Notes: generated from the letters alone by a model not told the origin. DNA of 64,000 bases from Escherichia coli (GCF_044647545.1 NZ_CP172818.1), one strand, 5' to 3'; positions 58,774 to 59,506 are shown, counted from the first letter of the stretch. Made by a program: numbers and translations.

Positions 58774-59506
58774 TTCCTTTCAATTGAAACGGAGCTGCCA
58801 TGCTCCGTTTACTTCGTCATTATTTTTACTTTGTTCCCGCGCAGTTATCAAAAGCAAAAGGAATAGGTAAAAATATTCTTCTCAAATTACAGTTAGTTAT
58901 AAGGATTTCCCTAACTGCTTCTCCTCACCATCATGTTATTTTCGCCACATCATAATCCTGGGCTTGCTGAAGAATAATTGAAATGATATTAGTAATTCCA
59001 CTACCTTTGGTAGAGGAACTAAATAATAATCAATTGTTAAATTATTGTGCATTTCACTACTGGAACTGTAATCAGAAAAGAGAGACATGCTTAACCAACC
59101 TCTATTTGATTGAATTGAAAGATGTTTGTTAAGGCATGGATGCAAGCTATAGATTCTGATACGGTCAATAAAAGAGAATTGCTTAACAATTTTGCAAAAT
59201 GTATTGGCGAGTAAGAACCGCATTTGGTACTTTCCGGGCAACCGCCAGGCGATTCTTTATTGGTAATGAGAATAATTAACAATTAAAGATCGTCGCGAAA
59301 GAATAATGTGTCTCGACAGGGGAGACACAGTACGAATCGACATAAGGTGATCGTCTGAATCACCAGAATAAATAAAGTCGGTGATAGTAATACGTAACGA
59401 TAAAGTAACCTGACAGCAGAAAGTCTCCGAGCCTGTGCAGGGTCCCAATCCGGGATTACACATGCTGGTTAATACCAGTAATTATAATGAGGGAGTCCAA
59501 AAAACA

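Follow-up and report, generated by a model that had tools for sequence, protein, structure and literature searches.

The 733-bp gap between ychE and oppA of an Escherichia coli genome as the probable promoter and leader region of the oligopeptide-permease operon

What is held in a gap of more than 700 bp between two genes of the E. coli core genome? The question is raised by a 64,000-nucleotide stretch of E. coli DNA (GCF_044647545.1, NZ_CP172818.1), the whole of which is called the window below, in which ychE and oppA are separated by the 733 bp from 58,774 to 59,506. A preliminary description, made from the sequence alone, had put the distance at about 730 bp and called the DNA AT-rich, and both statements agree with measurement: the G+C content of the gap is 0.374, whereas that of the window is 0.502, that of ychE 0.48, and that of oppA 0.476 (that is, 37% for the gap against 50% for the window). 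The lowest value over any 200 nt of the region is 0.315.

The answer that we propose is that the gap is the promoter and leader region controlling the oppABCDF oligopeptide-permease operon, a reading to which we give a probability of about nine in ten on the sequence and its match to published landmarks. The locus is already known in detail. It is among the best-studied leaders of E. coli and is real, functional, and ordinary. The sections below place its elements on the present sequence and weigh the other readings where the evidence for and against them arises.

The boundaries, conservation, and identity of the gap

The flanking genes are readily assigned. Upstream, ychE is the plus-strand ORF 58126–58773, which encodes 215 amino acid residues matching the Pfam family MarC (E = 1.6e-76) and ends with a TAA stop at 58771–58773. 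Downstream, oppA begins with an ATG at 59507–59509 on the plus strand, and its product matches Pfam SBP_bac_5 (E = 1e-96). The RefSeq annotation of a near-identical E. coli, FDAARGOS_497, names both genes alike and begins oppA at the corresponding ATG. An upstream in-frame GTG at 59435 was considered as the oppA start and rejected as an artefact of the ORF-listing rule. In the FDAARGOS_497 annotation, no other gap between core genes of the stretch is as large as the ychE–oppA interval; the next largest are hns–tdk, at about 600 bp, and adhE–ychT, at about 390 bp.

The gap is found in 5423 of 5426 complete E. coli genomes, at 95–99.5% identity. In about 70 other species of Enterobacteriaceae, whose spacers were retrieved via YchE, the corresponding interval is 664–878 bp long, mostly 740–780 bp. 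The long gap is therefore not a chance feature of the present strain. These comparisons also bear on the proposal that the AT-rich DNA is either filler with no function or what is left of mobile DNA. Such a reading would fit the low G+C content and the landing of insertion sequences in the gap in laboratory strains, IS5 in MG1655 and IS2 in W3110. Against it, both the length of the spacer and islands of its sequence are kept in the roughly 70 species, which belong to many genera, and functional sites have been mapped in it experimentally in K-12 (PMC9988348). Nor does the spacer contain repeats of the mobile-element type: a repeat search gave only short two-copy matches, of chance size and doubtful meaning. 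The chance that the gap is filler is thus practically negligible, and we return to the reading of a control region.

To place the published landmarks, the oligonucleotides of Carrier et al. 2023 (PMC9988348) were matched to the window, most of them without mismatch. That study confirmed two transcription starts in K-12, P1 at +1 and P2 at +246 (Carrier, Lalaouna and Masse, RNA Biol 2023, PMC9988348), and reassigned the former “P3” at +341 (Igarashi 1997) as an RNase E processing site. The K-12 leaders are 511 nt from P1, 266 nt from P2, and 171 nt after processing (PMC9988348), where a short unregulated leader would have spoken against the preliminary description. The K-12 oppA region (Igarashi et al. 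1997; PMC9988348) is the same locus with nearly the same sequence, and all the landmarks map to the window. Since the landmarks transferred through the K-12 primers all fit one numbering scheme, the region is the published oppA control region. We infer from the K-12 and Salmonella literature that the transcription starts, the cleavage, and the regulation are the same in the present strain. The preliminary view of an oppA promoter and leader with sRNA sites is borne out to the extent that P1, P2, and the MicF and GcvB sites can now be placed on the sequence.

Two promoters, conserved blocks, and a strain-specific deletion

In the proposed arrangement, the first 225 bp or so of the gap would hold the ychE terminator hairpin and DNA upstream of the promoters. 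Transcription would then start at P1 (59000) and P2 (59241), both of them published as targets of repression by Lrp, giving leaders of 507 and 266 nt. The elements of this part, with the promoter hexamers assigned from the start points, are as follows:

58787–58810, plus strand: hairpin AAACGGAGC-tgccat-GCTCCGTTT, seen in the sequence directly 3′ of the ychE stop
58934–58949, plus strand: CRP-like palindrome TGTTA-N6-CCACA, its midpoint lying about 58.5 bp 5′ of the P1 start
58964–58992, plus strand: promoter P1, with presumed −35 TTGCTG (58964–58969), a 17-bp spacer, and extended −10 TGaTATTAG (58984–58992)
59000–59506, plus strand: P1 leader, 507 nt here and 511 nt in K-12, with +1 at A 59000
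59001–59013, plus strand: hairpin CTACC-ttt-GGTAG, seen in the sequence at the 5′ end of the P1 transcript
59014–59050, plus strand: conserved block beginning GAAtGTGCTAAATAATAAnCAATTGTTAA, P1 +15 to +50, conservation 0.79–0.91 among about 70 species
59032–59040, plus strand: AATTGTTAA, copy 1, P1 +33 to +41
59183–59191, minus strand: AATTGTTAA, copy 2, P2 −58 to −50, inside the block 59164–59215
59204–59233, plus strand: promoter P2, with presumed −35 TTGGCG (59204–59209) and extended −10 TGgTACTTT (59225–59233)
59276–59284, minus strand: AATTGTTAA, copy 3, P2 +36 to +44, specific to Escherichia

The hairpin at 58787–58810 is likely the ychE transcription terminator. In the alignment, other genera have a hairpin in the same place, with different stems and often with a T-run after it. 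The terminator scan did not flag 58787–58810 in the window, where the T-run is too weak.

The position of P1 comes from the promoter-fusion primer EM5064, the reverse complement of which ends at 59000, and the other primer landmarks fit the numbering from this +1. By the same primer numbering, P2 starts at A 59241 (K-12 +246), 266 nt before oppA. According to published K-12 work, P1 is the stronger oppA promoter. Both appear to be extended −10 promoters, with their elements correctly spaced from the start points, and few islands of the spacer are better conserved. In the 70 species, the −35 of P1 takes the forms TTGCTG, TTGCCG, or TTGATG, and its −10 is TGATATTAG or TGTTATTAG in all but one (69/70); at P2, TTGGCG is kept in 65 of the 70 species and TGrTACTTT in 61. 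A scan of the region with the sigma-70 consensus found promoter-like matches at the number expected from shuffled sequence, with neither P1 nor P2 among them; as extended −10 promoters whose hexamers are weak, both escape such a scan. The window and K-12 differ by a few SNPs: the −10 of P1, for example, is TATTAG here against TATTAT in K-12, and position +4 shows an A/G difference. A TATTAG hexamer, ending in G, is weak for sigma-70.

Across genera, conservation is high in the P1 region (58934–58999), in the block 59014–59050, and in the upstream and promoter DNA of P2 (59164–59233, of which 59164–59215 is the conserved block upstream of P2). It is high again in the loop of the hairpin H1 described below, in GAAUCGAC, in AAGUCGGUGAUAG, in the tract of the Hfq site and Shine-Dalgarno, and at the beginning of oppA. 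It is low at 58824–58933, 59054–59163, and 59244–59263. Thus, among about 70 species, the two promoters, the RNase E motif, and the MicF site are islands in a variable spacer. The small hairpin at 59001–59013 presumably has a role at the 5′ end of the P1 transcript. Within Escherichia, both arms of its stem vary and yet stay paired (CTGCC/GGTAG in K-12 and CTGCC/GGCAG in E. whittamii), and it is not clearly kept outside this genus. The oppA literature covered assigns no role to the initial 340 nt of the P1 leader.

Three open frames lie on the opposite strand of the gap, as follows:

58936–59241, minus strand: ORF of 101 amino acid residues, corresponding to the RefSeq hypothetical protein WP_001211525.1 (98 residues)
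59091–59282, minus strand: ORF of 63 residues, from the ORF listing
59257–59463, minus strand: ORF of 68 residues, from the ORF listing

That the first of these is a real gene is suggested by the open frame itself, about 100 codons long, and by the NCBI pipeline, which annotates WP_001211525.1 in most complete E. coli genomes. The comparative evidence points the other way. Of six other Escherichia sequences, five (two of E. coli among them) interrupt the frame, and outside the genus the longest open frames agree in neither frame nor position. In the window, the 4-bp deletion described below shifts the frame in the C-terminal part and replaces the last 25 or so residues. The conserved parts of the footprint are the promoter blocks of P1 and P2, and the spacer varies most in the middle of the footprint. 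The product has no Pfam match at E up to 0.1, and the frame is antisense to the P1 promoter and to an experimentally mapped leader. A real minus-strand gene is, in our estimate, extremely unlikely, and the ORF 58936–59241 is probably spurious. The preliminary description had dismissed the minus-strand ORFs in the same way, most likely rightly on conservation and Pfam.

According to published ChIP data, Lrp occupies the oppA promoter in two peaks, and its repression is relieved by leucine. The Lrp consensus YAGHAWATTWTDCTR is matched at 59035, 59192, and 59268, with three mismatches each, in or beside conserved blocks; the window has 109 such matches where 83 are expected, so that by themselves they do not rise above chance. 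The CRP-like palindrome has two mismatches to TGTGA-N6-TCACA, which is chance level within the window alone. Its block is conserved across genera, and there the commonest form, TGTTATTTTACTCACA, is nearer to the consensus, with a single mismatch. Because they coincide with conserved blocks, the CRP-like site at 58934–58949 and the Lrp-consensus matches are kept, in each case as a candidate site and a lead only.

The 9-mer AATTGTTAA is a further candidate. The spacer holds three of the four copies present in the 64 kb of the window, where 0.025 would be expected (Poisson P ~2e-6). In copies 1 and 2, a TTGTTAA core is conserved across genera, and TTAACAAAT stands at the position of copy 2 in 60 of the 70 species. 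The block 59014–59050 could be an operator or an RNA element. It is tempting to propose that this block, the block 59164–59215, and the CRP-like palindrome are operators for a regulator that has not been assigned to opp, or are the precise sites of Lrp and CRP; this proposal is tentative, and we consider it rather unlikely. The blocks 59014–59050 and 59164–59215, which are the two most conserved among those that the literature covered does not explain, have the TTGTTAA core in common.

One of these blocks is altered in the present strain. From 54915 to 64000, the window is identical to FDAARGOS_497 except that AGTG is missing after 59018. The missing bases, which are present in K-12, are +20 to +23 of the K-12 numbering, inside the conserved +15 to +50 block. 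Among the 5426 complete genomes, the deletion is shared by BS-01 and HS-01 only, and in BS-01 it lies on a different, K-12-like SNP background. It follows that the deletion arose or was transferred more than once, or that the position is error-prone to sequence. A deletion at P1 +20 could alter the behaviour of the P1 leader.

The deletion directly adjoins CTAA at 59019–59022, the target of IS5U in the MG1655 reference, NC_000913.3. In that reference, the inserted IS5 interrupts the leader at +27/+28 and cuts P1 off from oppA; it is absent from the window. W3110 has been reported to carry IS2 in the same ychE–oppA spacer, and 52 records match the 71 bp around the deletion point only partially.

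The processed leader and its regulatory sites

Downstream of P2, we propose that RNase E would trim both leaders at 59336 to leave a 171-nt proximal leader made of conserved hairpins. The hairpins in the list below are predicted. Elements of this part, all on the plus strand, are as follows:

59307–59330, plus strand: hairpin H1, TGTGTCTC-gacaggg-GAGACACA, from separate folds
59334–59341, plus strand: RNase E motif GAAUCGAC, with cleavage at A 59336 (K-12 +341) from the literature
59346–59364, plus strand: hairpin H2, GGTGAT...ATCACC, weak (mean z −1.1)
59367–59389, plus strand: MicF pairing site, K-12 +372 to +393, about 120–140 nt upstream of the AUG
59394–59413, plus strand: AU-rich putative enhancer, deleted in the published oppA-delta-399
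59409–59441, plus strand: hairpin H3, CCUGACAG ... CUGUGCAGG, bulged, from the RNAalifold consensus and separate folds
59442–59456, plus strand: hairpin H4, GUCCC-aaucc-GGGAU, in most separate folds, with varying stems
59464–59479, plus strand: hairpin H5, GCUGGU-uaau-ACCAGU, from the RNAalifold consensus and separate folds, directly upstream of the Hfq site
59479–59487, plus strand: Hfq distal-face (A-R-N)n site UAAUUAUAA, K-12 +484 to +492
59489–59495, plus strand: Shine-Dalgarno GAGGGAG, from the sequence, conserved, 11 nt from the AUG
59496–59525, plus strand: C/A-rich element, putative target of GcvB R1, across the oppA start codon

The processing site is placed by primer EM4528, which is described as beginning at the cleavage site and maps to 59336, 171 nt before the AUG; the sequence beginning there is AUCGACAUAAGG. 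The motif GAAUCGAC is identical in 52 of the 70 species, and ATCGAC within it is nearly invariant.

For the structure of the leader, 39 leaders differing by more than 10% were cut at invariant anchors, and each piece was folded separately. H1 forms in all 39 of these diverged sequences, each time with z below −1.5, and its stems differ while the loop ACAGGG is conserved. An H2-like hairpin is predicted in most of the sequences, with changes on both arms. Between the MicF and Hfq sites, H3, H4, and H5 form in nearly all 39. RNAalifold on a MAFFT alignment found pairs changed on both sides in H3, in up to six sequences per pair, and in H5, with eight double changes at one pair and four at another. 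It missed H1, H2, and H4 because their stems are out of register in the alignment. RNAalifold also proposes that AUCGAC at 59336–59341 pairs with GUCGGU at 59377–59382; this helix is invariant, so that covariation speaks neither for it nor against it. By these predictions, the proximal 171-nt leader is a conserved structured RNA.

A leader this long and structured, with five conserved hairpins, might be a transcription attenuator or a riboswitch, in which a leader peptide, a ligand, or a protein would bring about premature termination. “Attenuation control” was indeed named in the preliminary description, and one review and Carrier et al. (PMC9988348) loosely apply the term riboswitch to the polyamine-responsive structure. 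However, a terminator scan of 58600–59650 found no plus-strand intrinsic terminator in the leader, that is, no hairpin followed by a U-run; its one terminator-like match is the minus-strand complement of H1, where there is no gene to terminate. A scan of 57600–59700 with Rfam 15, at E up to 10, gave chance-level matches only and no family assignment: the best scores were 16–24 bits against thresholds of 40–100, for unrelated eukaryotic (snoRNA, miRNA) or Listeria families.

A leader peptide was sought as well. The single plus-strand ORF of at least 30 residues lying wholly inside the P1 leader is 59122–59214 (+), of 30 residues. It was rejected as a leader peptide, with column conservation of 22–40% and no family match; few stretches are less conserved than the one that it covers. 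In the absence of a terminator, and with so poorly conserved a leader ORF, attenuation is without support, and the literature describes translational and RNA-processing control instead. Polyamines, in particular, are published as acting on the initiation of oppA translation at a distant Shine-Dalgarno, where spermidine stimulates, and not on termination. We therefore drop the attenuation claim of the preliminary description and regard an attenuator or riboswitch as very improbable.

In the published modulon, the polyamine-responsive mRNAs (OppA, RMF, RpoE, and CpxR) have a distant or obscured Shine-Dalgarno. The GAGGGAG of the window stands 11 nt from the AUG and, as in those mRNAs, adjoins GC-rich bulged stems. 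Polyamines would remodel the structure around this distant Shine-Dalgarno. The Hfq site has been placed at K-12 +484 to +492 (PMC9988348), and TAATTATAATGAG within it is conserved across genera; Hfq bound to the A-R-N tract at 59479–59487 would block initiation.

A further site is that of GcvB. The preliminary description had pointed to CA-rich motifs near the oppA ribosome-binding site as the thing to scan for, and the scan comes out in its favour. The most C/A-rich 28-mer of the region, at 59496–59525, spans the start codon, and with 86% C+A it belongs to the top 0.0125% of the 28-mers of the 64-kb window. GcvB targets are reportedly C/A-rich elements at or near the ribosome-binding sites of mRNAs for ABC transporters, dppA and oppA among others, in an account that is said to go back to Sharma et al. 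in 2007, and oppA is said to be a founding member of the set described there. The C/A-rich stretch at the start codon in the window is complementary to the G/U-rich R1 of GcvB, and no difference from that target set was found. A duplex with R1 is predicted at 59497–59544, with an energy that by itself is no better than that of shuffled sequences (55 of 200). In K-12, oppA is repressed by GcvB at the ribosome-binding site (PMC9988348). In the window, GcvB on the C/A-rich stretch would likewise block initiation.

The MicF site lies farther upstream. In K-12, pairing with MicF at +372 to +393 is known from protection in lead-acetate probing, and an AU-rich putative translational enhancer lies directly 3′ of the paired stretch (PMC9988348). 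For the duplexes, the MicF sequence was taken from the K-12 record, and MicF and GcvB were folded by their seed regions only; duplexes of the whole-length RNAs with the region were tried and rejected, as such long duplexes are meaningless. The prediction pairs nucleotides 14–25 of MicF with 59367–59378 and nucleotides 1–9 with 59381–59389, at −22.9 kcal/mol. No more than 5 of 200 shuffled sequences match this energy, and the position is that of the published protected stretch. AAGTCGGTGATAG in the site is nearly invariant across genera. The enhancer is located by primer EM5095, which joins 59393 to 59414; the AU-rich stretch is moderately conserved.

As to the effect of this pairing, the studies of E. 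coli and of Salmonella disagree, translational activation being reported for the former and a sponge for the latter, as set out in PMC9988348. In the E. coli model, MicF bound at 59367–59389 would expose the adjacent AU-rich enhancer and so raise translation. In the Salmonella model, the same site would act as a sponge of MicF: the proximal leader would be mainly the source of an OppX-like decoy that sequesters MicF and derepresses ompF.

In Salmonella, the homologous leader is reported to give rise to OppX, a sponge for MicF (Matera et al. 2022, as given in PMC9988348), with forms of 410, 190, and 109 nt that come from the oppA 5′ UTR. Two subspecies of Salmonella enterica, diarizonae and arizonae, have the MicF-complementary sequence AAGUCGGUGAUAG, the RNase E motif GAAUCGAC, and the layout of hairpins in common with the window. 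The sequence prerequisites for an OppX-type sponge are present in the window.

The experiments in K-12 speak against the decoy. A stable fragment of the oppA 5′ UTR was not detected on a Northern blot, the RIL-seq chimeras reach beyond the boundaries of OppX, and MicF raised OppA-LacZ activity in a manner dependent on base-pairing (PMC9988348). As presented in that paper, the OppX fragments are stable in Salmonella and were not found in K-12, where MicF activates oppA translation. That the proximal leader of the present strain serves mainly as a decoy is possible but doubtful. The decoy touches the MicF step only and could coexist with activation. Activation of oppA translation by MicF is the reading that we carry forward for the E. 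coli leader.

Meaning for the strain and for the family

As a discovery, the gap carries little weight: the window simply holds the textbook case of layered post-transcriptional control, in which GcvB, MicF, Hfq, RNase E, and polyamines take part. Its value lies in annotation, as each K-12 landmark can be set on its exact base in the present strain. The RefSeq “hypothetical protein” opposite the oppA leader should be taken as a gene that was probably called in error. Should the conserved blocks prove to be operators, which would be of modest interest, the 4-bp deletion in the first of them would make the present strain a natural regulatory variant of oppA. An architecture of two promoters and five hairpins is kept across the Enterobacteriaceae, and this favours study of the distal P1 leader and of the promoter-proximal blocks.

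Promoter motifs and a deletion in the P1 leader

The 733-bp spacer between ychE and oppA (58774-59506) carries the oppA promoters P1 and P2, whose starts, mapped from K-12, lie at 59000 and 59241, and it contains three copies of the motif AATTGTTAA, against 0.025 expected; the whole 64 kb holds one further copy. The motif copies and a candidate CRP-like palindrome are as follows.

59032-59040, plus strand: AATTGTTAA copy 1, at P1 +37, in a conserved block, with the TTGTTAA core conserved
59183-59191, minus strand: AATTGTTAA copy 2, at P2 -54, in a conserved block, with the TTGTTAA core conserved
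59276-59284, minus strand: AATTGTTAA copy 3, at P2 +40, Escherichia-specific
58934-58949: candidate CRP-like palindrome TGTTATTTTCGCCACA, with its centre at about -58.5 relative to P1

The palindrome is kept across genera, and its commonest form, TGTTATTTTACTCACA, has one mismatch to the consensus. The -10 hexamer of P1 (58992) is TATTAG in the window and in nearly all other genera, whereas that of K-12 is TATTAT. Since TATTAT is nearer the consensus, P1 of K-12 may be atypically strong.

The leader of P1 lacks, at 59018/59019, the AGTG that is found at +20 to +23 of the K-12 leader and in essentially all E. coli. From 54915 to 64000, this 4-bp deletion is the sole difference between the window and the near-identical annotated strain FDAARGOS_497. 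It is common only to two complete E. coli genomes, BS-01 and HS-01; in BS-01, the one of the pair that was fetched, it lies on a K-12-like SNP background. The site of the deletion falls within a block conserved across genera.

Insertion sequences and differences from the closest relative

The spacer is a recurrent insertion-sequence target in laboratory strains. In the MG1655 reference, an IS5U sits at CTAA (window 59019-59022), splitting P1 from oppA, and an IS2 has been reported within the spacer of W3110. The 71 bp around this CTAA are matched only partially in 52 E. coli records, and a contiguous copy of the spacer is absent from 83 genomes.

Elsewhere, between tdk and adhE (53940-54930), the window keeps about 950 bp of an IS4-family transposase gene as a remnant, resembling a form that roughly every second E. 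coli genome has; in FDAARGOS_497, the closest relative, a full-length IS4 occupies this position instead. At about 29770-30990, the repeats of the Ldr type I toxin region exceed those of FDAARGOS_497 in length by some 440 bp, so that the window may have an additional repeat unit. Positions 1-17292 show no alignment with their counterpart in FDAARGOS_497, where an island bounded by an integrase adjoins ychF; the window presumably has a different island in this part.

Reading frames and records at the locus

Most E. coli genomes carry a RefSeq/PGAP call for a 98-residue "hypothetical protein", WP_001211525.1, on the minus strand at 58936-59241. The frame is not conserved, even inside Escherichia, and it runs across the P1 promoter and leader as mapped; the gene call is probably false. 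For oppA, the mechanical frame opens at an in-frame GTG (59435) and so gains 24 codons (59435-59506) over the protein as annotated; both the signal peptide and the annotation favour the ATG at 59507 as the start. Upstream of ychE lies one further annotated frame.

58042-58095: ychT, a small ORF of 17 codons, 30 bp upstream of ychE (RefSeq annotation)

Some RefSeq records label ychT with the gene name ychE. A contig titled Chryseobacterium sp. 18061 (L059) holds a typical enterobacterial ychE-oppA locus with a 90% identical YchE; this assembly has probably been mislabelled or contaminated.

Pairing in the oppA leader

RNAalifold paired AUCGAC at 59336-59341, the RNase E site, with GUCGGU at 59377-59382, within the MicF site (59367-59389). 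Both segments are invariant, and the helix thus offers no covariation by which to judge it. If the pairing is real, RNase E access and MicF binding would be structurally coupled.
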